Positions 11,103 through 59,660 of a DNA stretch of 64,000 nucleotides are shown piece after piece (position 1 is the first letter of the stretch; the number at the start of each line of letters is the position of its first letter). Source of the DNA: an uncultured bacterium. GTDB taxonomy: Bacteria > Hydrothermota > Tepidihabitantia > Tepidihabitantales > DTDR01. Below the pieces are notes generated by a model. It worked only from the letters and a program-made list of their open reading frames with translations, was not told where the DNA came from and searched no databases. The position numbers were made by a program, and so were the translations under genes. The DNA is taken from NCBI GenBank assembly GCA_964505415.1, contig CAZDHW010000009.1, positions 1,102 through 65,101 of the forward strand, read 5' to 3'.

Positions 11103-11341
11103 TTTTTAATGCGCAGGGATGCGTGAACCTTACTAACCACATCTTCCGGCAATTCATAGTGGGCTAAACTTCTTAACTCATAAATTATTCGCCTTATGGT
11201 TCTGATTAACCTTGTGCATTCGCGACAAACGAGACGGTGTTTTTCCAATTCAATTAAAATTTCGGAAGGCAAATCTTCATCTAAATATTCAACTAAATAT
11301 TTTTTAAAAACCTCACAATTATATTCTATTTTTTTTCTCAT
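11087..11341 (-). CDS. Zinc-binding anti-sigma factor (ZAS, zf-HC2; soluble RsrA/ChrR-like)
   Basis: 84 aa with no TM segment. C-x23-H-x3-C-x2-C (NCEV...EKHRLVCRECT) ZAS motif. 4-bp overlap with the ECF sigma gene. Confidence 0.6.
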   Translation of the reverse strand: MRKKIEYNCEVFKKYLVEYLDEDLPSEILIELEKHRLVCRECTRLIRTIRRIIYELRSLAHYELPEDVVSKVHASLRIKKWKRR

Positions 11342-11952
11342 GTTTTTATTAAATGTTTAAGTTTTTCTCGCAAAAATAGTCTTCCCCGATGGAGTCGTGA
11401 TTTAACCGCCGAAACGGAAATCTTCAAAATATCGGCCACTTCCTTATTGGAAAGTCCTTCAACATCTCTTAAAAAAACCACCGAACGGTAAGCTTCCGGA
11501 AGTTCGGCCAAAGCCTTTTGGACAGTTTCTTGTATCTGTTTTCGCTCGTAAATAACTTCTGGGTTTTGAGTCTCATCAGGAATTTCTTGGGGAATCTCTT
11601 CGTGTTGGGGAATTCCTTCATCTAAAGAAACAACTTTATTTTCTTTTGCCCGTTTTTTTAACTTTCTTAAAGCAACATTGACGGCAATCCGATAAAGCCA
11701 AGTATAAAAACTTGACCTTTCTTCAAACTTCTTTAAAAACCGATAGGCCCGAATTAAGGTCTCTTGTAAAACTTCTGCGGCATCTTCTTCATTATTTAAA
11801 AACCGATAAGCTAAATTATAAATCTTTTTTTCATAGCGACTGATTAACATCTCAAAGGCTTCATCATTCCCTTCCTTTGCCCGTTTTATCAGTTCGCTTT
11901 CGGTTAACGGTAAGGATTTAAGTTCTTCTTTGGGTTTAATTAAACTCTTCAT
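11338..11952 (-). CDS. ECF-type RNA polymerase sigma factor (sigma-24/RpoE-like)
   Basis: Region 2 (YNLAYRFLNNEEDAAEVLQETLIRAY...FYTWLYRIAVN) and region 4 (EAYRSVVFLRDVEGLSNKEVADILKISVSAVKSRL) signatures. Confidence 0.85.
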   Translation of the reverse strand: MKSLIKPKEELKSLPLTESELIKRAKEGNDEAFEMLISRYEKKIYNLAYRFLNNEEDAAEVLQETLIRAYRFLKKFEERSSFYTWLYRIAVNVALRKLKKRAKENKVVSLDEGIPQHEEIPQEIPDETQNPEVIYERKQIQETVQKALAELPEAYRSVVFLRDVEGLSNKEVADILKISVSAVKSRLHRGRLFLREKLKHLIKT

Positions 11953-12753
11953 CTACTTTATTTTTTTGCCTTTACCTTTCCCGGGAGTATTGTCAAAGAT
12001 TTCAATAACATAATAAATAACGGCTATTGATTTCCTTGGCGACTCGCCGTGAAAATAATCGTGAATAAGATTGGCATACTCCCAGACATCTTTTTCATAC
12101 TCAGTAAGATAAGGATTATTGGGATGTAAAAGGTGGGCTAAACATTTTATCTTATAAGAAGGAATATCTAAAAAGACAATCGCACAAGCGGGGTTAACCA
12201 TTTGGTTAAGAAAGGTTTGGGTATAAAAATTTTTATCGGTATAAAGTTCTAAAGAAATCTGTCTTGTTAAATCAAAAACTTCTTTACCATTTTTGTATAA
12301 ACTCTCCAAAATGCTTACTTTTTTTTCAAAAGAATCGTTAAAAGTTGTTTTTAAAAGATTAATAACTTCTTTTATCTTCTCTTTTTTGGGCAAAAACCCC
12401 ATCCCTTTTACCGCCACATTTATTTTAAATCGGGAATCTTCCCTTTGGGCACCATAAGTAGCTACCATTCCGTTATGAGGTCCAGCCCAATCAGGTGCCT
12501 CTTTTTTCTTTATCTTCTCAATCATCAATAATCTTCTTTGAAAGTTCCATTCCAAAAACTCTTCGGGTAATTCTATTAATTTAAAATCTTGCCAGCGACC
12601 ATCAACTTTCGCCCGAATAACTCCTTTTTCAATGTCTTTAGTATCGATCGTATTTTGAATAAAATAATCCTTATTTTGGTAAAAATCGTATTTTTTATAA
12701 GCTTTTAAAATTAAAGGAGTAAAAAGAAGTATGAATAAAAAAAGCTCTTTCAT
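11953..12753 (-). CDS. Hypothetical secreted protein (signal peptide), co-operonic with ECF sigma module
   Basis: Hydrophobic N-terminus MKELFLFILLFTPLILKA. No recognisable motif. Sits between rseC-like and ECF sigma genes with 0 to 4 bp spacing. Confidence 0.4.
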   Translation of the reverse strand: MKELFLFILLFTPLILKAYKKYDFYQNKDYFIQNTIDTKDIEKGVIRAKVDGRWQDFKLIELPEEFLEWNFQRRLLMIEKIKKKEAPDWAGPHNGMVATYGAQREDSRFKINVAVKGMGFLPKKEKIKEVINLLKTTFNDSFEKKVSILESLYKNGKEVFDLTRQISLELYTDKNFYTQTFLNQMVNPACAIVFLDIPSYKIKCLAHLLHPNNPYLTEYEKDVWEYANLIHDYFHGESPRKSIAVIYYVIEIFDNTPGKGKGKKIK

Positions 12754-13175
12754 TTTTCCTCCTTAATTATCTCTTTTATTTTTGGCAAATACTCTTCTTT
12801 TTTTAATAAAGACTTTTGGAAAAGTTTTAAACTTAATAGGGTTAAAATAAGAAAGGAAAAAGTTAATAAAAGGGCATAGGCTTCTTTTTTAAAAAAGAAA
12901 AAGCCAAAAAGCAGCCCCAAAAATATTCCTAAAATTGGTAGCCCAAAAAGAAAAAGAAAGATAACACTTCTTTTTTGGGGAAAGTCAATCGCCACCAAAT
13001 CACCAATCTGGGCGTTTACCGAATTTACAACCTCCAATTCCCTTTCTTCATTTTTGGCAAAGAGACCACAACCGCCCTTTTGACCGCAGCCGCTGCATTG
13101 GGGATTAATTTTAATCTTCACAATCGCCCTTTTATCTTTTAATTCCTTTACATAGCCATAAAAACATTCCATCAA
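12750..13175 (-). CDS. rseC: RseC/MucC family sigma-E regulatory protein (SoxR-reducing-system RseC family)
   Basis: N-terminal CSGCGQKGGCG, compare E. coli RseC CSSCASRAGCG. Followed by two TM helices. 141 aa. Confidence 0.65.
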   Translation of the reverse strand: MMECFYGYVKELKDKRAIVKIKINPQCSGCGQKGGCGLFAKNEERELEVVNSVNAQIGDLVAIDFPQKRSVIFLFLFGLPILGIFLGLLFGFFFFKKEAYALLLTFSFLILTLLSLKLFQKSLLKKEEYLPKIKEIIKEEK

Positions 13176-13259
13176 ATAATTTTAATAATTGGCAATATTT
13201 AAATCAAGAATTATCAACCAATTACTTGATTTTTTTAATTTTCTTTATAGCATAAAAGT

Positions 13260-13880
13260 ATGGCTTTACTTTTATTCAAAGCCCTTTTATTGGGATTGGC
13301 TACTGGCTATTTCTGTCTTGGCTATTGTCTACCAACAATTTTGCCTTATTTTTTATCAACCGACAACTTTAAAAAAAACTTAAAAAATCTTTTGTTTTTT
13401 CTTTTCGGTAGGCTTTTTGGTTATCTCTCTTTTGGTTTCTTCTTTGCCCTTTTGGGAAAATCTTTGGTAAAATTATCAACTTTTCATAATCTGATTTTGC
13501 CTCTTCTTTATATCTGTTTATCAATTTTACTTTTTTTATATGGCTTTTTCCTCTCTTTTCCCCATTTTTCCCTTTGCCAAATTTTTAAAAATAAATTAAC
13601 CCTAAACCTTTCACTTTTTTTCATTGGTTTAATTATGGGAATAAATATCTGCCCACCTTTCTTAATTTCTATTCTCAATGTGATCGAAACGGCTGACATC
13701 TTAAAAGGTCTTCTATATTTCTTTTTCTTTTTCTTAGCAACTACCATTTATTTCTTTCCTTTTGCTTTTCTTTCTTTTTTAACGCAATACAAAATAACCA
13801 AAATTATTGGCAAAATAAGTGCCTTTCTTGCCGGGGGTTATTTTCTCTATCAAGGAATATTGACATTTATTTATCGTTAA
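13260..13880 (+). CDS. CcdA/DsbD-family thiol:disulfide transporter-like membrane protein
   Basis: Helix-1 motif FCLGYCLPTILPYFLS resembles CcdA SPCvLPllPaYLS. Second Cys-Pro motif NICPPFLISIL. About 6 TM helices. Confidence 0.5.
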   Translation: MALLLFKALLLGLATGYFCLGYCLPTILPYFLSTDNFKKNLKNLLFFLFGRLFGYLSFGFFFALLGKSLVKLSTFHNLILPLLYICLSILLFLYGFFLSFPHFSLCQIFKNKLTLNLSLFFIGLIMGINICPPFLISILNVIETADILKGLLYFFFFFLATTIYFFPFAFLSFLTQYKITKIIGKISAFLAGGYFLYQGILTFIYR

Positions 13881-13888
13881 GATATAAT
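13860..13888 (+). promoter_or_regulatory. Consensus sigma70 promoter TTGACA-17-TATAAT for selD
   Basis: TTGACA 13860-13865, 17-nt spacer, TATAAT 13883-13888. Predicted TSS at 13895/13896, i.e. at the selD ATG. Lies in the last codons of the CcdA-like gene. Confidence 0.45.
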
Positions 13889-13895
13889 TTGGGTT

Positions 13896-14942
13896 ATGAA
13901 TAAAGAAATAAGAAATCTGTTAGACACTATCCTTTGTCCGGGTTGAGCTTCAAAATTTAATCAGACGCAGTTAGCGTCGGTTTTGAGCAAATTGCCCCGG
14001 ATAAAGGATAAAAGAATACTTGTTGGTTTTAATACCGCCGACGATGCCGGTGTTTTTCAAATTAGTAAAAATAAGGCAATTGTTCAAACGGTGGATGTCT
14101 TTGCTCCGACTATTGATGACCCCTATCTTTTTGGCGAGATTGCGGCTTGTAATTCTTTAAGTGACATTTATGCTATGGGTGGTAAACCTTTATTAGCAAT
14201 GAATGTTGTTGGTTTTCACCCGAAATATCCCTTAGATTGGTTTAGTAAAATGCTTTTGGGCGCTTTTAAAAAGACAAAAGAAGCAAAGACCTTTATTGTC
14301 GGCGGTCATACTTTTGTTTCCGAACAGGTAATGTTCGGTTTAGCGGTAACTGGTTTTATCAATCCTAAAAAGATTATCACTAATGCTAAAGCGCGTCCAA
14401 ATGATTATTTGGTTTTAACTAAACCATTAGGGGTAGAAATCTTTTCTTATGCCCTATTAAAAAAGCTTGATATTCCTAATAAATTATATAAAGAAGCAGT
14501 GAAGTCAATGACCACCCTCAATGATAAGGCATCAGCAATAATGGTAAAGATTGGCGTTAATGCTGCTACCGATATTACCGGTTTTGGTTTGATTGGTCAT
14601 TTAGCAGAAATGATCAGTGCCAGTAAAGTGGGAGCAGAAATTTACGCTTCTTCTTTACCAGTTTTACCAGAAGTTCTTTCTTTGATTAAAAATGGGGTGA
14701 TTGGTGCCGGTTACGGAATGAATTACGCATCTTTTGCTAATCAGGTAATTTTTGAAAAAGATGTTAGTGAAGAATATCAGATATTAGTATTTAGTTCGGA
14801 AACTTCTGGTGGGCTTTTAATCTCTGTACCCGAAAAAAAATTGGCAAAATTACAAAAAGAATTAAAAAGGAATAGAATTATTAGTAAAGTAATCGGTAGA
14901 ATTGTTAAAGACCATCCTGCTACTATTATTGTTAGAAAGTAG
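13896..14942 (+). CDS. selD: Selenide, water dikinase (selenophosphate synthetase) SelD, selenocysteine-containing (UGA at codon 17)
   Basis: ORF track starts at internal TTG 13983. Reading upstream in frame gives ATG 13896 and MNKEIRNLLDTILCPG-U-ASK with TGA at 13944-13946. This aligns with E. coli MSENSIRLTQYSHGAG-C17-GCK. Downstream DDAGV, NSLSDIYAMGGKP and GGHT motifs confirm SelD. Confidence 0.8.
13947..13988 (+). promoter_or_regulatory. Putative bacterial SECIS hairpin immediately 3' of the selD UGA
   Basis: Outer stem GC(T)TCAAAA / TTTTGAGC. Inner stem GACGC / GCGTC with apical loop AGTTA at 13969-13973. Begins at +1 after the UGA, the expected bacterial SECIS position. Confidence 0.45.
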
Positions 14943-15948
14943 TTTAAAAGAGGCTTTATTTTATAAAAAATTAGAAAATAACCAGGTTCAGTGTCAATTA
15001 TGTTTTCGGCAATGTGTTATTTTAGAAAATAAAAGGGGATTTTGCCGGGTAAGGGAAAATAGAAAAGGAAAACTTTATAGTTTAGTTTATAACCATCCGC
15101 AAGCAATCCAAATCGACCCCATTGAAAAAGAACCGTTGTACCATTTTCTTCCCGGGACCGAAATCTTGGGCATCGGTACTGTTGGTTGTAATTTTGTTTG
15201 CCACCATTGCCATAATTGGCATCTTTCCCAAGCAACTTTTAAAAAAGAAGAGAGCTATTTCATCACGCCCAAAGAGATTATTGAAATGGCAAAAAGAAAA
15301 AATATAAAAACTATCTCTTTTACTTATAACGAACCAACAGTTTTTTATGAATATATTTTAGCTATTGCCCAAGAGGCCAAAAAGAATAATATCAATATTA
15401 TCTGGCATTCTAACGGTGCTATCAATCAAGAACCCCTTTTAGCCCTTTTAGAATATACCGATGGCGTAACAATTGATTTCAAAGGTATTACTAACGAAAT
15501 CTTAGCCAAAATGTCGCAGGCGAAAGTTGATAATACTTTAAAAACTTTAAAAACCATTAAGGAAAAGGGAAAATGGTTAGAAATTGTTAATCTTATTATT
15601 CCGACAATAAATGATAGTGAAGAAGATATAAGAAAATTATGTTTATGGATAAAAGAAAATTTAGGAACTGACATCCCTCTCCACTTTACCCGCTATTTTC
15701 CTAATTATAAATTAACCATACCTCCAACCCCCATTTCCACTTTAGAAAAAGCCTATAAGATTGCTAAGGAGGTGGGCTTGAAATATGTTTATCTTGGTAA
15801 TGTTCCTGGTCATAAATATAATTCCACTTATTGCCCCAAATGTAACAAAAGATTAATCCAGAGATTCCATTTTACTATTTTAGAAAACAAGATTAAAAAT
15901 GGTAAATGTCCTTTCTGCCAAGAAAAAATTCCTGGTAGATGGCAATAA
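14929..15948 (+). CDS. AmmeMemoRadiSam-system-type radical SAM enzyme, copy 2 (paralog of 3251-4276)
   Basis: CQLCFRQC...GFCRVRENRKGKLY, radical SAM CNFVCHHCHNW. C-terminal third is nearly identical to copy 1 (PPTPISTLEKAYKIAKEVGLKYVY). ORF track start is TTG 14902; TTG 14929 gives an N-terminus matching copy 1. Either start overlaps the selD end. Confidence 0.7.
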   Translation: MLESSLKEALFYKKLENNQVQCQLCFRQCVILENKRGFCRVRENRKGKLYSLVYNHPQAIQIDPIEKEPLYHFLPGTEILGIGTVGCNFVCHHCHNWHLSQATFKKEESYFITPKEIIEMAKRKNIKTISFTYNEPTVFYEYILAIAQEAKKNNINIIWHSNGAINQEPLLALLEYTDGVTIDFKGITNEILAKMSQAKVDNTLKTLKTIKEKGKWLEIVNLIIPTINDSEEDIRKLCLWIKENLGTDIPLHFTRYFPNYKLTIPPTPISTLEKAYKIAKEVGLKYVYLGNVPGHKYNSTYCPKCNKRLIQRFHFTILENKIKNGKCPFCQEKIPGRWQ

Positions 15949-30023: not shown

Positions 30024-31465
30024 AAAAGTTGAATTTTAGCATTAGTTATCGATTATTGGCTGATGTTTTAATTTTAACATTTTCTTATTCTTTTGTGAAC
30101 TTCTTAACTAACCATCGTCTGCCCAATTTTCTTTCTCTTTATTTTCTTGTCACTTTTTGCTTATTTATCTTTTCTCTTTGCGGTTTCTATACTTACGGAA
30201 GAACCTATCGGGGAAGATACAAATTCCTTTTAATCCTTTTTGCCAATTCGTTAGCTTTCTTTTTATTTTATTACTTATCCCCCCTCTTTTTATTCCCTCA
30301 ACAATTACGGACACTTTTTTTTACTTACCTTTTAGCAACTTTTCTCTTGTCTTTTGCTCGTCTTTTTCTTTTATTATCAAACCATTTTACTTATTTAGAG
30401 AAAAAAAGAGCCCGGGTTATTAAAAAACCAATTGAAAGGATTTTGGTAATTGGGGGTGCCGGTTATATCGGTTCGGTGCTAGTAAGAAAATTATTAAAAT
30501 TAGGTTACAAAGTAAGAATCTTAGACAACTTTCTTTACGGAAAAGAGAGCATAAAAGAACTTATGAAAAACAAATCTTTTGAAGTAGTGGAAGGCGATTT
30601 TCGTCACATTAATATTTTAACCGAAGCCTTGGAAAATTGCGATGCCTTAATCCATTTAGGAGCCATTGTTGGTGACTCTGCTTGTGCGCTTTCCGAAAAG
30701 TTAACTATTGAAACTAATCTTCTGGCTACTAAATTTATTATTCAGGTAGCAAAAAGTAAAAATTGCCAGCGGTTTATTTTTGCTTCTACTTGTTCGGTCT
30801 ACGGTGCCAGCGATAACGAATATCTTACCGAAGAAAGCAAAACTTTTCCGGTTTCACTTTATGCCAAAACTAAATTGGATTCGGAAAAAATCCTCCTCAA
30901 AGAAGGAAAAGAGCTGGTTACTACTATTTTAAGATTTGCTACTGTTTACGGACCTTCCTATCGGGAAAGATACGATTTGGTGGTTAATCTTTTATCTTTA
31001 AAAGCAGTAAAAGAAAAGAAAATAACGGTTTACGGTGGTGAACAATGGCGACCTTTCATCCACATTGACGATCTTTGTGAAGGAATTATTAAGGTTCTCT
31101 TAGCAAAAGAAGAACTGGTAAGAGATCAGATTTTTAATTTAGGAGATACTAAAGAAAATTACCAATTAAAAGAGATTGGGGAAATTATCCAAAACATTGT
31201 TCCCGATGCGGAATTAATTATCCTACCGGAGACAAACGATAGAAGAAATTATCGGGTCTCCTTTGAAAAGATTAAAAAAGTTTTATCTTTTACTTGTCAA
31301 AAAAAAGTAAGAGATGGCGTCATTGAAATGATTGAAAGGATAAAACAAAATGGTAAAGGTTATTTTTCACCCGACTTTTTCCAATGTGTTTCTAATTATG
31401 AGAGAATTAAAAATTGTAAAAAAGAAAGTTATTGGCTGGAATTAGTTAAAGAGGAGGTCTTATGA
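30017..31465 (+). CDS. Membrane-anchored NAD-dependent nucleotide-sugar epimerase/dehydratase (extended SDR)
   Basis: Four N-terminal TM helices, then GGAGYIGS Rossmann motif and YAKTK (YxxxK) catalytic motif. TM-anchored dehydratase architecture resembles PglF/WbpM-type enzymes. Confidence 0.7.
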   Translation: MLKKLNFSISYRLLADVLILTFSYSFVNFLTNHRLPNFLSLYFLVTFCLFIFSLCGFYTYGRTYRGRYKFLLILFANSLAFFLFYYLSPLFLFPQQLRTLFFTYLLATFLLSFARLFLLLSNHFTYLEKKRARVIKKPIERILVIGGAGYIGSVLVRKLLKLGYKVRILDNFLYGKESIKELMKNKSFEVVEGDFRHINILTEALENCDALIHLGAIVGDSACALSEKLTIETNLLATKFIIQVAKSKNCQRFIFASTCSVYGASDNEYLTEESKTFPVSLYAKTKLDSEKILLKEGKELVTTILRFATVYGPSYRERYDLVVNLLSLKAVKEKKITVYGGEQWRPFIHIDDLCEGIIKVLLAKEELVRDQIFNLGDTKENYQLKEIGEIIQNIVPDAELIILPETNDRRNYRVSFEKIKKVLSFTCQKKVRDGVIEMIERIKQNGKGYFSPDFFQCVSNYERIKNCKKESYWLELVKEEVL

Positions 31466-31875
31466 GATGGGTTATTTTTCTCGGAATCTTAACTTTAGCA
31501 ATTTTCAAATTTTTAATTGCGCAACCAACGAATAAAGAAATGCCAATAAAAGCCCATATTTGGGGAGAAGTAAAAAATCCTGGCTCTTATTATCTTTCTT
31601 ATACCGGTGATATTTTAGAACTGATTTCGCAAGCCGGCGGACCCACACCTAATGCCGATTTATCAAAAATCACTTTAATTGTCGCCAAAGAGAAAAAAAG
31701 GATAGGTCTTAATCTTAATAAAATGATTAAAAAAGGTGAAATCTTGCTCCTTTCTAACGGTGATGTTGTGATCATTCCTCGTTCAAAATTAGCTACTTTA
31801 AAAGAAGCTATACCATTCATAACTACTTTAGCAGTATTTGTTAATCTTTATTTAACTTATATAACCAGGAGGTGA
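31462..31875 (+). CDS. Polysaccharide export protein (Wza-like Poly_export/SLBB domain)
   Basis: Signal/TM N-terminus. GEVKNPGSY...GDIL and DVVIIP motifs of Poly_export/SLBB. Confidence 0.55.
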   Translation: MRWVIFLGILTLAIFKFLIAQPTNKEMPIKAHIWGEVKNPGSYYLSYTGDILELISQAGGPTPNADLSKITLIVAKEKKRIGLNLNKMIKKGEILLLSNGDVVIIPRSKLATLKEAIPFITTLAVFVNLYLTYITRR

Positions 31876-31878
31876 AAA

Positions 31879-33969
31879 ATGAAAGAGTATAATCTGGAGA
31901 AAATTATTTTAATTATTAAAGAGAAAAAAAAGGTAATCATTACCATCTTTCTCCTTTCCTTGATAATTGCTCTTCTTTTTACTTTTTTAACCAAACCTGA
32001 ATACGAAAGTAGGGCCACTATTTTAGTAGAAGGTGATAAACTAAACTCTGATTTGTTCTTTTCCTCTCCCTTATCCTTTGCTAAACAAAAAAGTCTGTTA
32101 TATAACTACTCAGAAATTTTAAAATCGCATAACTTAATGCAAACGGTTTTAGAAGAATTAAAAAAGACTGAAGCGAAAAATTATTTTAAAAATATTGAAG
32201 ATTTACAGAAAAAGGTAACAATAAAAATTATCAAAGAAACCGACATTTTAAATATTAAAGCGAAAAGCGAGAAACCCGAGGCAGCAGAAATTCTTTGCGA
32301 AGTTTATGCCAAAACCTTTGAAAACTTTGTCGCTAAAATCACCAAAGAAGATGTGCAAAAAATTAAAGAATTTACTTATAACCAATTAAAAGAAATTGAA
32401 AAAGAATTACAGGCTAAAGAAAGAGAAATCACTGAATTTAAAAAGAAAAATCGGATTGCTGATTTAGACCAAGGAACCAAGGAACTTTTTCAAAATATAA
32501 TTAACATCAAAACCCTTTATGATGAAGTCCTTGCTCAATACCACGAAAAGCAAGAAGAACTCTTTTCTCTAAAAAATACCTTTAACGAAAATCAAAGGCA
32601 TTTCTACAACCAATTAATTCAAGAAAAATCTTCTTTAATTAACGAAATGCAAAAAACTTACCAAAATTTAGAAATTGAAAAAACCCACCTTTTATTATCC
32701 GGTTATGAAGAGAATAACGAAAAAATGAAAAAAATTGAAGAAAAACAAAACGAAATAAGAGAAAAGTTACTTTCCCTCACACCGGCATCTTTTATTGAGC
32801 CGTTAGAATTTCTCAAAACCTTAGAAGGCCAAGCAATCTTTAAAGAAATTGAACTTAATGCTCTTAAGGCAAAATTAACCAAACTTTCGCAATTACTTTC
32901 TCAATACGAAAGGGAATTAGCAAAATTACCAGAAAAAGAAAGAACTTATTTGAAATTGAGCCGCGATTTAGAAATTCTCCAAAAAATTTATTCCCTTTTA
33001 AGGGAAAAACACGAAGAAGCCAAAATAAACGAAGCCGGTAGGATTTCTGGAATAACTTTAATTGAGGCAAAAACACCGGCTAAAAAAATTAAACCTTCGC
33101 TTTCTTTTAATATCATTACTGCTCTCTTTTTAGGGTTAGCATTTGCTTTCGTTACTGTTTTCTTATCAGACTATTTTAATAACACGATAAAATCAATTAC
33201 TGATGTAGAAAAATTGAATGTTGGTGTTTTGACGACTATTCCGAATCTTAATAAAAAAGAAAAAACTAATGGTAACGGTGTTACTAAATTTATTATTCCT
33301 TTCTCCGATGAAGAAAAAACTTCGGCCGAAAGTTATCGGATATTAAGAACTTCCTTATTATGGTCCTTTTTCAACGAAAATAAAAAAGTCGTTTTAATAA
33401 CTTCTGCCAATCCTGAAGAAGGAAAAACAACTGTCGCCTGTAATCTTGCTTACATTCTTGCTCAAGGTGGAATAAAAACATTGCTAATTGACTTGGATTT
33501 AAGAAAACCTCGCCTTCATTCTATTTTCTCTATTAATAGAAAACCAGGATTTACTGACCTGATTCTCAATAATCTTAAACCAGGTAGCAATGGCCATATT
33601 CCTAAAACCAATTTTCCTAATCTTGATCTTCTTCCGGCCGGTTCGTTGATACCTTCGCCAGCAGATTTTTTAGAAAAAAAATTTGTTGAGGAATGGTTAA
33701 ATAAATTTAGAGAAGAATATTCAGCAATAATTATTGATTCACCGCCAGCGTTAATCGCTGCTGATGTGCCGATTCTTACTAAAAAGGTTGATGGTGTTTT
33801 ATTAGTGTGCGGCTTTCTGAAAACCGATTTAAACCAGTTAGAAGAAACAATAAAAATTCTTAACGAAAAGGAAAAGAAAGTTATTGGTTGTGTTTTAAAC
33901 TTTTATGAACCGTTAAAAAAATATCATAATTATTACTATTATCATTATAAATATCGAAAAGAAAAATAA
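31879..33969 (+). CDS. Polysaccharide co-polymerase / bacterial tyrosine autokinase (Wzc-like, Wzz domain + CpsD ATPase + C-terminal Tyr cluster)
   Basis: N-terminal TM plus Wzz/GumC region, long coiled coil, second TM. Walker A TSANPEEGKTTVACNLA. C-terminal YHNYYYYHYKY tyrosine cluster. Confidence 0.75.
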   Translation: MKEYNLEKIILIIKEKKKVIITIFLLSLIIALLFTFLTKPEYESRATILVEGDKLNSDLFFSSPLSFAKQKSLLYNYSEILKSHNLMQTVLEELKKTEAKNYFKNIEDLQKKVTIKIIKETDILNIKAKSEKPEAAEILCEVYAKTFENFVAKITKEDVQKIKEFTYNQLKEIEKELQAKEREITEFKKKNRIADLDQGTKELFQNIINIKTLYDEVLAQYHEKQEELFSLKNTFNENQRHFYNQLIQEKSSLINEMQKTYQNLEIEKTHLLLSGYEENNEKMKKIEEKQNEIREKLLSLTPASFIEPLEFLKTLEGQAIFKEIELNALKAKLTKLSQLLSQYERELAKLPEKERTYLKLSRDLEILQKIYSLLREKHEEAKINEAGRISGITLIEAKTPAKKIKPSLSFNIITALFLGLAFAFVTVFLSDYFNNTIKSITDVEKLNVGVLTTIPNLNKKEKTNGNGVTKFIIPFSDEEKTSAESYRILRTSLLWSFFNENKKVVLITSANPEEGKTTVACNLAYILAQGGIKTLLIDLDLRKPRLHSIFSINRKPGFTDLILNNLKPGSNGHIPKTNFPNLDLLPAGSLIPSPADFLEKKFVEEWLNKFREEYSAIIIDSPPALIAADVPILTKKVDGVLLVCGFLKTDLNQLEETIKILNEKEKKVIGCVLNFYEPLKKYHNYYYYHYKYRKEK

Positions 33970-55366: not shown

Positions 55367-56140
55367 TTAGCGGTTTTTCAACTTTTCTAAGATTTTCTCT
55401 TTCCTAAAAGATAATTTCTTTACTTTTGGCTCCGCTTCAATATAGAAAGTGTGGTCTTCTGGTGAATACAAGGCGTTAAAGAAACCATAGCCAAATCCTT
55501 TAATATTACCTTTTTCACCCGGCTTCAAAGCCGGTCCAGTACCGGAATAAACCGTAATATTTCCTTCACCAGAAAGAATCTCCGCTACATATCCAGGAAA
55601 AATTCTTTGGGCATCAATTATTAAAAAGGTATCTTTCAAAACGGTATCTAAAGAAAAAGTAAAATCGTCATCTTCACCATTAGGATATAAAAAATCGTAT
55701 TCTATCCAAATAACCACTTCATACCAACTGGCACCTTCACTTTTTTGCCAGATAACTTTAAAAGGAAGCTCGCTTTTTTTGATTATCGTCTCTTCTTTCG
55801 GATAAAGGATTTCAAAATCCTTAGGCATAAAAACTTCACTATAGGCATTGCCCCCTTCATGTTCTATTTTCAATTTATAATTCTTACCGCTTTCAAAGGG
55901 TAAATAGTTTCCATAGAAGGCATAAGTGAAAGGTTCATTTATCAATGGTAAAAGAAGGTCGTTAATAAAAACCTTGGGAATCATTTTAAACCCCTTATAG
56001 TTATACACCACAACCTCTTGGAAATAACGCACATCATCTTTTGTAAATTCCATTTTCGAAACCCAACCCTGAATATAAACTTCTTCTTTTTTTTGACAAA
56101 AGATAAAAAAGATTAAAAGGAAAATTATTTTATCTCTCAT
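55367..56140 (-). CDS. Hypothetical lipoprotein/secreted protein
   Basis: Signal peptide with Cys (LIFFIFCQKKE). No recognisable motif. Confidence 0.35.
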   Translation of the reverse strand: MRDKIIFLLIFFIFCQKKEEVYIQGWVSKMEFTKDDVRYFQEVVVYNYKGFKMIPKVFINDLLLPLINEPFTYAFYGNYLPFESGKNYKLKIEHEGGNAYSEVFMPKDFEILYPKEETIIKKSELPFKVIWQKSEGASWYEVVIWIEYDFLYPNGEDDDFTFSLDTVLKDTFLIIDAQRIFPGYVAEILSGEGNITVYSGTGPALKPGEKGNIKGFGYGFFNALYSPEDHTFYIEAEPKVKKLSFRKEKILEKLKNR

Positions 56141-57257
56141 AATGCATCGGCATTAAAAGATAAAAAATTTCTTCATCACCTTTTATTTCCGAAGGCACAA
56201 TCTTCATCGCGGAAGTGGGTGAAGTGAAATAAATAGTGGCTTTTTCACTATCAACTTTGGAAAGAATTTCTTGAAGATAAACAGCATTGAAAGCAACCTC
56301 CATCTCTTCCCCCACATAACGACCGCTGATTTTCTCCGAACCTTTACCTACTTCTGGAGATTCGCTAAAAAGTTTTATTGCCTCTTCTTTTAAAGAAAGA
56401 ATCACCATTCGCGTCTTATCTTCAACCCGCGAAAATATCGAAACCCTTTTTAAACTTTTTAAGAAATCATCAACTTCAAAAGTATAGTAATTATCTTCGG
56501 CAGTAGGTATCGCCTTTTCGTAATCAGGGAAAGGACCTTCAATCAAACGGGAGATAAAGAAATATTTCTCACCTTCTAAATCATATTCAAAACCAATTCG
56601 CGTATCATCAAAATAGATTTTTACTTCTTTTATATCTTCTAATAGGAGTTCAAAAGCAGTTGGCGGAATAATCAGCGAAATATTTCTATTAATACCTAAT
56701 TCAATTTTCTTTTTATATAAAGCTAAGCGATAACCATCAGTGCCGACAAAACGAAGTTCGTTCTCCCTCACCTCTAAAAGGACACCGGTAAGTGCCGGAC
56801 GAGTCATCTCTTTAGAAACGCAGAAACCGGTTTTTTCAAACATTTCGATCAAAAGACGGTTATCAAAAGAAAAAGAATTCTCCGTTGGTAAGTCTTCTTT
56901 TTTGGGAAAATCTTCCGGGGGTACGGTAATAAATTGGTATTCACCTTTACTTGTTCTTAAAGAAAAATTGTTCTCTTCCAAAGAAACCTCTAAGAGCGGT
57001 TCGGAGATTTCTCTTAAATTTTCTAAAAGCTTTCGGCCAAAAACTACCGCCTCTCCCTTCATTTTAATATTATCTTTTCCCAAATACTTTTCAGTATAAC
57101 ACCAAAAATCTAAATCCGTGGCATAGATAGAAAAATTCTCATCATCGCAAGCAACATAAACATTTTGTAAAATAGGAAAGGTTGCTCGAGCAGGAACAAT
57201 TTTTATTACCCTTTCCAACAACCTTTTAAAAAGCTCGGTACTTATTTTCAATTTCAT
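56130..57257 (-). CDS. dnaN: DNA polymerase III beta subunit (sliding clamp) DnaN
   Basis: Three-domain clamp pattern. N-terminal MKLKISTELFKRLLERV...ILQNVYV. C-terminal LMPM region. 375 aa. Confidence 0.85.
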   Translation of the reverse strand: MKLKISTELFKRLLERVIKIVPARATFPILQNVYVACDDENFSIYATDLDFWCYTEKYLGKDNIKMKGEAVVFGRKLLENLREISEPLLEVSLEENNFSLRTSKGEYQFITVPPEDFPKKEDLPTENSFSFDNRLLIEMFEKTGFCVSKEMTRPALTGVLLEVRENELRFVGTDGYRLALYKKKIELGINRNISLIIPPTAFELLLEDIKEVKIYFDDTRIGFEYDLEGEKYFFISRLIEGPFPDYEKAIPTAEDNYYTFEVDDFLKSLKRVSIFSRVEDKTRMVILSLKEEAIKLFSESPEVGKGSEKISGRYVGEEMEVAFNAVYLQEILSKVDSEKATIYFTSPTSAMKIVPSEIKGDEEIFYLLMPMHYER

Positions 57258-58621
57258 AAAACCTCCTTTAAACCTTTTATTAATAATTTTACTTCTTCTT
57301 CTCTTACGGTTCGCAAATCTAATAAAAGACTATCATTTTCAATTCGTCCATAAATCGGAATTTTCCCTTTTCTCAATCTTTTTGCCAATTCCATAATATT
57401 TTCATTTTTAATTCTTAATAAATAAGTAGGCAATTTTACTCCGGCTAAAGAACCACCACCAATTTCACTCTCCCCTTCAATTATTGTTAATTGGTATTTT
57501 TCTTGCTTATCTTTTAAAGCTCTATAAACTTTTTTAGCCATTTTTTTTATCTCTTCTTTCTTCCTTAAAATCATTCGGATGACTTCATTTTCTTTTAATA
57601 ATTTTTCTTTATCAAAAAAAAGTCTCAAGGTGGCTTCTAAAATTGCCAACCGGGTTTTATCAATTCTTAAGATTCTCATAACGGGACAGGAAGCCAGTTT
57701 TTTTATGAGTTCTTTTTTACCAACAATTATTCCGCATTGGGGACCACCTAAAAGTTTGTCACCCGAAAAACAAACCAAACCGGCTCCTTTTTCAATACTT
57801 TCTTTTACTACCGGCTCTTTGGGTAAACCGAATTGGGAAAAATCAATAAAAGCACCGCTACCCAAATCATCAACCACTGGCAAATTATATTTTTCCCCCA
57901 ATTTTACCAAATCTTCAATAGGTACCTCTTTAGTAAAACCAATAAGGCGATAATTACTTTTATGAACTTTTAAAATCAGCGCGGTATTTTCATTAATTGC
58001 CTGCTCATAATCCCGCAAATGAGTCCGATTGGTAGTGCCAACTTCTTTTAAAATGGCTCCGGCTGATTTCATAATTTCTGGCAGTCGAAAGGCCCCACCA
58101 ATTTCAATCAACTCTCCGCGGGAAACGATAACCTCCCTACCTTCGGCTAAGGCTTTTAAAATCAAAAAAGTGGCACCCGCATTATTATTACACACCAAAC
58201 CAGCTTCAGCACCAGTTAAAGCTATTAATAATTTTTCCACATGACGCATTCGGCTTCCCCGACGTCCATCTTCTTCGTTAATCTCTAAATTACAAAAGCC
58301 ATCAAAAAGCTCACCAATCTTTTCTTTTAAATTTTTGATATAAGGTGCCCTCCCTAAACCAGTATGGAGAATCACACCGAGGGCATTTATCACCTTTTTT
58401 AAACTGGGCGAAACGGCAAAAGAAACATTCTCAATAATTTCTTCCTTATTTACTTCCTTTTTCTTACCGGCTAAAATAGCGCTTCTCAAATTATTAATTT
58501 CTTCCTTTAAAAAAAATAAAACCAGTTCCCGAGGATAAAGAGTTAACAATTCCTTTATTTTTGGTTCTTTTAACAAACCATCTACTGAGGGGATTTTCCT
58601 TAAAATATCTTCATTCACCAT
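57254..58621 (-). CDS. selA: L-seryl-tRNA(Sec) selenium transferase SelA
   Basis: N-terminal ILRKIPSVDGLL (compare E. coli LYSQLPAIDRLL). INALGVILHTGLGRA. VSRGELIEIGGAFRLPEIM. PLP Lys region FSGDKLLGGPQCGIIVGKKELI. Near-colinear with E. coli SelA. Confidence 0.9.
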   Translation of the reverse strand: MVNEDILRKIPSVDGLLKEPKIKELLTLYPRELVLFFLKEEINNLRSAILAGKKKEVNKEEIIENVSFAVSPSLKKVINALGVILHTGLGRAPYIKNLKEKIGELFDGFCNLEINEEDGRRGSRMRHVEKLLIALTGAEAGLVCNNNAGATFLILKALAEGREVIVSRGELIEIGGAFRLPEIMKSAGAILKEVGTTNRTHLRDYEQAINENTALILKVHKSNYRLIGFTKEVPIEDLVKLGEKYNLPVVDDLGSGAFIDFSQFGLPKEPVVKESIEKGAGLVCFSGDKLLGGPQCGIIVGKKELIKKLASCPVMRILRIDKTRLAILEATLRLFFDKEKLLKENEVIRMILRKKEEIKKMAKKVYRALKDKQEKYQLTIIEGESEIGGGSLAGVKLPTYLLRIKNENIMELAKRLRKGKIPIYGRIENDSLLLDLRTVREEEVKLLIKGLKEVL

Positions 58622-59660
58622 CTTGCTTTTTTAAGATTTTCTTAATAATTAGAGCCCTTTTTAAATCCCTTTCTTCAGCGGTAAGCTTTTCGTTTTTTAG
58701 ATAATGCATCAGATTAGCTCTTTTAACTAAAATGTTAAGAATATTAATTGTCAAAAGGGAGATATTTTTTATTATCCCCAAACAGATACCCAAACGGAGG
58801 TTTGATAAAAGATTAATGGCTTCTTCCGAATTTAAAAGCACCGCATTAGTTAAAATTCCATAAGAACGCCAAATCTTATCTTCAATCTCATTTTTTAAAT
58901 TTTTCAAAAGGTAATCCCGTGCTTTCCTTTCGTATTCAATAATCTGGTTTATGAGATTTTTGGTATTTTCAATAATCTCTTTTTCTTCAATACCGATAGT
59001 AAATTGATTACTTATCTGAAAATAACTACCCAAGGCAAGACTTCCTTCACCATAAATTCCTCTTACTAAAAAACCCATATTTTTAGCTGCTCTCACCACT
59101 TTCTCCATTTCGTTAGTCAAAACTAACCCGGGTAGATGAAGCATCACGCTGGCTCGCAAACCAGTGCCCAAATTTGTCGGACAAGCAGTTAAAAAACCAA
59201 ACTTCTCGGAAAAGGCATAGGGCAATTCTTTTTCTAATTTATCATCAATTTCGTTTATCTTTATAAAAATCTCATCCAGAGAAAAACCGGCTTCTAAAAC
59301 CTGCAAGCGGATATGGTCTTCTTCGTTTACCATAATACTAATTTTCTCTTCTTTATCAATAAAAACTGCTTTCTCATTTTTACTCAAAACGAAATCAGGT
59401 GAAACCAAATGTCTTTCCAAAAGATAATTTAAAAAAAATTCATCAAGGTTGTCACTGGTATAAACATTAAAACTATCTAATTTTAAAATGGTTTCTCTTA
59501 ATTCTTCAACAATCTCTTCTTGCTCTTTTTTACTCGCCTTCAAAAGAAAAAGATGGTTTTCTAAATTGCGGGCAAGTCTAATGCGGGAAGAAATACAAAC
59601 ATCCGATTCTTCCCTAATTTCCCTCAAAAAACCCGGCACCAACTCTTTATTCAATTTCAT
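58611..59660 (-). CDS. mcsB: Protein arginine kinase McsB (ATP:guanido phosphotransferase)
   Basis: ISSRIRLARNLEN signature, phosphagen-kinase fold motifs (CPTNLGTGLRASV), C-terminal dimerisation region. Confidence 0.85.
   Translation of the reverse strand: MKLNKELVPGFLREIREESDVCISSRIRLARNLENHLFLLKASKKEQEEIVEELRETILKLDSFNVYTSDNLDEFFLNYLLERHLVSPDFVLSKNEKAVFIDKEEKISIMVNEEDHIRLQVLEAGFSLDEIFIKINEIDDKLEKELPYAFSEKFGFLTACPTNLGTGLRASVMLHLPGLVLTNEMEKVVRAAKNMGFLVRGIYGEGSLALGSYFQISNQFTIGIEEKEIIENTKNLINQIIEYERKARDYLLKNLKNEIEDKIWRSYGILTNAVLLNSEEAINLLSNLRLGICLGIIKNISLLTINILNILVKRANLMHYLKNEKLTAEERDLKRALIIKKILKKQDGE

Follow-up and report, generated by a model that had tools for sequence, protein, structure and literature searches.

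A selD gene probably read across an in-frame UGA: evidence for selenocysteine in the catalytic loop of SelD from an uncultured bacterial lineage

Background

The DNA analyzed here (a bacterial stretch of 64 kb, referred to throughout as the window) harbors a gene for selenide, water dikinase (SelD) that can be read from either of two starting points. The question that this locus raises is whether that gene begins at an internal TTG codon, where a mechanical listing of open reading frames had placed it, or at an ATG located farther upstream, in which case its coding sequence would cross an in-frame TGA at the position of a catalytic residue. Forms of SelD that contain selenocysteine (Sec) constitute the second most widespread family of prokaryotic selenoproteins, with examples in Haemophilus influenzae and in many Deltaproteobacteria and Clostridia (PMC13188914, PMC1794560), and one proposal is that such an enzyme, being self-supporting, maintains the Sec trait (PMC1794560). 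The comparisons described below make it very probable that positions 13896-14942 of the forward strand encode a complete SelD in which the residue of the catalytic N-terminal loop is predicted to be Sec, and that the 319-residue open reading frame called at this locus is an artefact.

The selD reading frame

The gene and its two candidate starts are defined by the following features.

13896-14942, forward strand: complete coding sequence of selD (348 codons and a stop), predicted to have Sec at codon 17 (assigned by TIGR00476 and solved structures)
13944-13946, forward strand: in-frame TGA, the predicted Sec codon 17, in the motif C-P-G-U-A-S-K and aligned with Cys17 of Escherichia coli SelD
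13983-13985, forward strand: TTG, start of the shortened open reading frame in the mechanical listing, judged not to be the real start

Translation of positions 13896-14942 demonstrated that the ATG at 13896-13898 is in frame with the called open reading frame (13983-14942), and that the sixteen sense codons running from that ATG to the TGA (MNKEIRNLLDTILCPG) give rise to the N-terminus M-N-K-E-I-R-N-L-L-D-T-I-L-C-P-G-TGA-A-S-K. The TGA is followed by a frame of 331 codons that contains no further stop and ends at a TAG (14940-14942). The mechanical listing, by starting from the TTG and reporting 319 residues, omitted the first 29 codons of the gene; the chosen TTG falls within TTTTGAGC (13981-13988), which is the 3' arm of the outer stem of a hairpin described further below. 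The initial annotation of this locus had already proposed the ATG at 13896, the TGA at codon 17, the miscalled TTG, and the placement of that TTG within a hairpin arm, and the sequence of the window agrees with these statements base for base. A start error of this type is a well-known kind of annotation mistake.

The main alternative holds that the TGA is a true stop, that a truncated SelD is translated from the TTG at 13983, and that the sixteen codons upstream represent a chance or vestigial open reading frame. This interpretation matches both the mechanical call and the public database entries of relatives, which are 315-327 residues in length, and is nevertheless considered very unlikely, for reasons that begin with the protein itself: the shortened product would be devoid of the G-[C/U]-x-x-K catalytic loop. 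No motif resembling a Shine-Dalgarno sequence was found upstream of either the TTG or the ATG at 13896, and such motifs were present upstream of 21 of the 58 other open reading frames (background 12%).

The catalytic column

When the 348-residue protein, with Cys written in place of the TGA, was compared with the SelD family profile TIGR00476, it scored 320.8 bits (cut-off 125; E = 8.8e-96), with residues 12-314 matched to positions 6-309 of the 311 in the profile; the match begins upstream of the TGA. Solved SelD structures were also matched, with E = 1e-53 for the Aquifex protein (2yye, in an alignment that starts at residue 7) and E = 1e-50 for that of E. coli (3u0o). In the HMMER alignment with the latter, residue 17 corresponds to Cys17 and Lys20 to Lys20, such that G16-U17-A18-S19-K20 is aligned to A-G-C17-G-C-K20. 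The earlier claim that the upstream codons are colinear with E. coli SelD and that the TGA occupies the place of Cys17 was thereby upheld by profile and pairwise alignments alike, with the sixteen upstream codons aligning to the family and the TGA falling in its Cys/Sec column. The N- and C-terminal AIRS domains (PF00586 and PF02769) are present in the precomputed Pfam assignment of an identical shortened product (P0001), and the alignment of the full-length protein to solved SelD structures supports both.

A scan of a genome collection with the SelD protein yielded 80 diverse SelD loci, none with more than 49% identity, which were used as controls for the comparison of Sec with Cys. In a non-redundant set of 78 SelD sequences, composed of loci from that collection plus related loci and including that of the window, the column reads G-[U/C]-x-x-K without exception (TGA in 28, Cys in 50), and the usual Sec forms are G-U-A-S-K and G-U-A-A-K. 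Cys14 and Sec17 of the window's protein together form a C-x-x-U motif (C-P-G-U), and several other Sec-type SelDs show C-A-G-U; a C-x-x-U arrangement in the catalytic loop could permit a selenenylsulfide.

Conservation among relatives

Heading the database matches were an identical 319-residue product from JGI and two NCBI MAG proteins, at 81% and at 79%, followed by a group in the range of about 50-54%, some members of which are named candidate division WOR-3; all of these span only about 92% of the query. The lineage of this selD is an uncultured group, and its nearest named relatives are those of candidate division WOR-3. Inspection of the relatives' DNA indicated that ten of them, which were assembled independently and are about 50-81% identical, keep the in-frame TGA in the context C-P-G-TGA-A-S-K, or with G-A-G or C-A-G before the TGA in two that are slightly more distant. 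In seven sequences (those of the window, L001, L002, L003, L206, L207 and L208) an ATG is located exactly 16 codons 5' of the TGA, and the intervening peptide is conserved as MxKEIKxxLDTIxCPG.

These observations weigh against a true stop in two respects: the peptide encoded by the upstream codons is conserved even in relatives whose identity is as low as about 51-54%, at a constant separation of 16 codons between ATG and TGA, and the TTG start is not conserved. The starts selected by gene callers for the public entries (P0002-P0013) differ among the relatives (MDKLPK in P0002, MSQAQLA in P0004), are not equivalent to one another, and lie downstream of the TGA. To the question of whether SelD homologues begin at an equivalent of the TTG, the answer was that they share no called start, and that what they have in common is the retained TGA and, in the seven sequences named above, the ATG exactly 16 codons before it.

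A separate scan of metagenomes with the DNA pattern TGYCCNGGNTGHGCNTCNAAR returned 120 stretches, nearly all of them chance matches, with selD found only in L149, L176 and L197. In two loci (L211, at 1150-2472, and L197), a ferredoxin-thioredoxin reductase beta-like domain (PF02943) is fused N-terminally and in frame before the Sec codon. An AhpD-like domain (PF02627) is present in many SelD matches of 516-566 residues, and fused matches include P0017 and P0028.

A hairpin downstream of the UGA

Three nested elements of predicted RNA structure were distinguished around and after the UGA.

13964-13978, forward strand: predicted SECIS core, a stem of 5 bp (GACGC/GCGUC) capped by the pentaloop AGUUA 22 nt past the UGA (from covariation, RNAalifold and bSECIS criteria)
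13947-13988, forward strand: lower (outer) stem GC(U)UCAAAA / UUUUGAGC around the core, from the minimum free energy (MFE) fold and specific to the window sequence
13935-14003, forward strand: possible outermost helix UGUCCGGG / CCCGGAUA, enclosing the UGA and the SECIS, from the MFE fold

The folding energy computed for the 71 nt at 13935-14005 is -25.6 kcal/mol (z = -4.1), a stability that was not reached by any of 200 dinucleotide shuffles. In a gap-free alignment of nine distinct sequences, extending from the TGA to +41, the arms of the inner stem (GACGC at 13964-13968 and GCGTC at 13974-13978, flanking the loop AGTTA) form standard pairs in 91% of cells and display compensatory changes at three of five pairs, which for nine sequences amounts to moderate support; when the 3' partner was shifted by 1-3 columns as a control, pairing was reduced to 13-53%. 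The second pair varies among A-U, G-C and G-U, the fourth changes from G-C to C-G in L208 (where one arm has a silent substitution, GCG to GCC, and the other a compensating replacement of Ala by Gly, GCG to GGG), and the closing pair changes from G-C to A-U in L197. That closing pair is broken in four of the nine sequences, and the conserved stem comprises only 4-5 bp; RNAalifold independently identified four inner pairs of the core. The presence of a covarying hairpin after the TGA is a further argument against its being a true stop.

The outer stem (GC(T)TCAAAA at 13947-13955 with its partner at 13981-13988) is paired in only 51% of cases in the relatives and displays no real covariation, and on the basis of that pairing it was rejected as a part of the conserved SECIS. 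The two-tier SECIS hairpin that had initially been described is thus present in the window in both of its tiers, of which the inner is conserved and the outer is not, and the functional SECIS would most likely be the inner stem-loop only. The outermost helix (CCGGG/CCCGG; 13935-13942 with 13996-14003) is 77% paired in eight relatives and has undergone one compensatory change; its support is weak because conservation of the P-G and P-R codons would by itself hold both arms constant.

The properties of the predicted core were compared with those of the bacterial SECIS model (the bSECISearch consensus, as given in a 2026 review, PMC13188914). For an apical loop of 3-9 nt, the window has the 5 nt AGUUA; for an upper stem of 4-16 bp, it has 5 bp; for a G at the first or second loop position, with G or U as the usual next base, it has a G in the second position followed by U; for a distance of 16-37 nt between UGA and apical loop, it has 22 nt (13947-13968); and against an MFE ceiling of -7.5 kcal/mol, the UGA together with 54 further nt gives -13.6 kcal/mol. 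The compensatory changes in homologous genes for which the model also calls are those of the inner stem in the nine aligned sequences. The loops of relatives read AGUUG or GGA, with a G within the first two positions, and in the selD genes of L209 and L210 a stem of 6-7 bp carries a GGA loop 20 nt after the UGA.

Over the 78 SelD sequences, the 45 nt that follow the codon are more structured in the 28 genes of the TGA type than in the 50 of the Cys type (mean z -1.85 versus -0.05; Mann-Whitney p = 4.6e-9). Rfam searches at gathering thresholds returned no family match in the whole 64-kb window, and a search of 13880-14060 with E up to 10 returned no SECIS model, only chance matches to snoRNA, miRNA and lncRNA families.

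Predicted promoter and gene neighborhood

A predicted promoter immediately precedes the upstream start.

13860-13888, forward strand: putative sigma-70-type promoter, TTGACA, 17-nt spacer, TATAAT, a 12/12 match to consensus

The distance from the end of its -10 element to the selD ATG is 7 nt, and it is the sole full-consensus promoter within 13200-15200; that the only strong promoter sits just upstream of the ATG again disfavors a true stop at codon 17. An arrangement of TTGACN, 16-17 nt, TAnAAT, 5-7 nt and ATG is common to L001, L002, L003, L206, L207 and L208. The simplest reading suggests that the selD mRNA is leaderless and starts at the AUG, and if such an mRNA is made from the AUG at 13896, it follows that ribosomes must pass the UGA.

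The surrounding genes, at 11338-15948, encode an ECF sigma factor, an unknown 266-residue protein, RseC, a DsbD_2 membrane protein, SelD, and an AmmeMemoRadiSam radical SAM enzyme; this order is conserved in the closest relatives (L001, L002 and L212) and absent from those at about 50-54% identity. An open reading frame of approximately 85 residues with an H-x3-C-x2-C motif (LEKHRLVCRECTRL) occupies the reverse strand at 11103-11337, with mnmA on one side and the gene for the ECF sigma factor on the other; it falls below the threshold of the window's open reading frame list (110 residues or more). Its product is probably an anti-sigma factor, and L002 contains a gene of 87 residues at the matching place. 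The GC content of the window is about 29-35% throughout its 64 kb.

Selenocysteine machinery and use of UGA

One gene of the Sec pathway other than selD was found in the window.

57254-58621, reverse strand: selA, L-seryl-tRNA(Sec) selenium transferase (selenocysteine synthase); PF03841 with E = 1.5e-144 over positions 1-366 of the 367 in the profile, and PF12390

The selA gene is dedicated to the Sec pathway only, and its presence in the window constitutes the last of the observations that oppose a true stop. It is flanked by dnaN (56130-57257) and by a gene for a McsB-like arginine kinase (58611-59660); selD is not adjacent to it, nor is there an adjacent selB. In support of a true stop, selB and selC were not seen on the 66.6-kb contig. 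Pfam scans detected no SelB domains among window open reading frames of 110 residues or more, no selB was found in the approximately 2.5 kb of the 66,569-bp contig (ENA ERZ27245635) that lie beyond the window, and ARAGORN and Rfam detected neither tRNA-Sec nor any other tRNA in the 64-kb window. That one contig, which is part of a genome, was the extent of the search for selB and tRNA-Sec, apart from twelve related short selD loci in which no tRNA-Sec or other tRNA gene was found. In one relative (L211), selB is located directly upstream of selD.

A second alternative, in which UGA has been reassigned genome-wide to Trp or Gly (code 4 or 25) and codon 17 does not specify Sec, derives from public calls: three seemingly full-length matches show Trp at the Sec codon, as 'CPGWASK' (P0016 and P0022) or 'CAGWASK' (P0021). 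These probably represent the same TGA as translated by a code-4 gene caller on short contigs, which is the explanation that best accounts for them. Neither Trp nor Gly occurs at the catalytic column in any of the 78 SelD sequences. The 59 long open reading frames of the window end at TAA (34), TGA (19) or TAG (6), and code 11 yields an unbroken gene map; since TGA is the ordinary stop of 19 of these 59 frames, a reassigned code is rejected, and this alternative is even less credible than a true stop. Least probable is that the TGA is an error of sequencing or assembly, or a recent pseudogene mutation of a Cys codon (TGC or TGT), for which a single base change would suffice, given that the same TGA recurs in ten assemblies made independently of one another from separate samples, that two further JGI contigs encode the identical shortened product, and that the remaining frame is intact and clearly conserved at the protein level. 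A Sec-containing SelD is therefore retained as the preferred reading.

The initial annotation had also anticipated that UGA-interrupted genes elsewhere in the genome would probably prove to be misannotated; a rescan of the window revealed no convincing case. One pair of frames was considered and rejected as a recoding site: an SLBB-domain open reading frame (31462-31875, forward strand) and a Wzz/GNVR/P-loop open reading frame (31879-33969, forward strand) are in the same frame across a TGA, with that TGA plus one codon between them, and are most likely two ordinary neighboring genes in a cluster for polysaccharide export.

A proposed model for SelD synthesis

The Sec-containing SelD proposed above could be synthesized as follows. 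The promoter at 13860-13888 would direct transcription from a point that probably coincides with the AUG or adjoins it, to produce a leaderless mRNA, on which ribosomes would initiate at the AUG (13896) and arrive at the UGA of codon 17. By analogy with the mechanism of the family, the stem-loop at 13964-13978, with its AGUUA loop, would be bound by SelB-GTP-Sec-tRNA(Sec), and Sec would be inserted in place of termination. The completed SelD would produce selenophosphate, which SelA would use for the formation of Sec-tRNA(Sec). Because SelA needs the selenophosphate that is made by the Sec-containing SelD, the synthesis of SelD would depend on its own product, in a positive feedback tied to the supply of selenium.

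A broader proposition, possible and at present doubtful, is that the selD mRNA of this WOR-3-like clade is leaderless, with Sec 16 codons from its 5' end and a minimal class of SECIS (a GC stem of 4-5 bp and, at 22 nt from the UGA, an AGUUR pentaloop). Were this the case, it would signify that the SECIS has turned over inside a single gene family and that SelB may recognize it in a divergent way, and UGA-17, located so near the 5' end, would serve as a gate that senses selenium, on a transcript without other translational control.

The most immediate consequence is a corrected gene model, with selD at 13896-14942 and Sec at codon 17. The public entries for SelD in this clade are either truncated at the N-terminus or show Trp in place of the active-site residue, and so lack the catalytic residue; since the entries are truncated or mistranslated, analyses conducted across the family would misjudge the use of Sec versus Cys in these uncultured lineages. 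A Sec-type selD identifies the organism as one that uses selenium and, together with selA, indicates a Sec-decoding pathway, and for that reason other selenoprotein genes are worth seeking in the remainder of the genome. What is known of SelD or of Sec recoding in general is not changed by these results.

Comparison with known systems

The window's SelD resembles other bacterial Sec-SelD proteins in belonging to the TIGR00476 fold family, in having a predicted Sec at the equivalent of Cys17 within a G-U-x-x-K loop, in the intragenic hairpin that follows the UGA, and in the dependence of its synthesis on its own product. It is also colinear from the N-terminus with the SelD proteins of E. coli (3u0o) and Aquifex aeolicus (2yye/2zod), with which it shares the DDAGV, SDIYAMGG and TDITGFGL blocks; the E. 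coli enzyme, however, has Cys in the loop (G-C-G-C-K) and is made without recoding, whereas the window's gene has a TGA. Its C-P-G-U-A-S-K motif (CxxU) and its uncultured lineage distinguish it from the other bacterial Sec-SelDs.

The hairpin likewise combines familiar with divergent properties. Similar to the SECIS of E. coli fdhF and to the bSECISearch model, it is located immediately 3' of the UGA within the coding sequence and has a small apical loop containing G and U; unlike them, it has no obvious bulged U in its upper stem and its conserved stem is very short, and its binding by SelB is putative. In the mainstream SECIS of Sec-type selD genes (those Sec-type loci within L007-L085), a stem of approximately 8 bp carries a GGU, AGU or GUA triloop at about 33 nt after the UGA, in contrast to the 4-5-bp stem and AGUUR pentaloop at 22 nt that are found in the window's clade. 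On comparison of these sequences, replacement or relocation of the SECIS seems to have occurred within the selD family. The selD of the window is, in summary, that of an ordinary Sec-SelD, in agreement with the known form in each respect that was tested, and what sets it apart is the lineage, the variant of the predicted SECIS, and a transcript that is likely leaderless.
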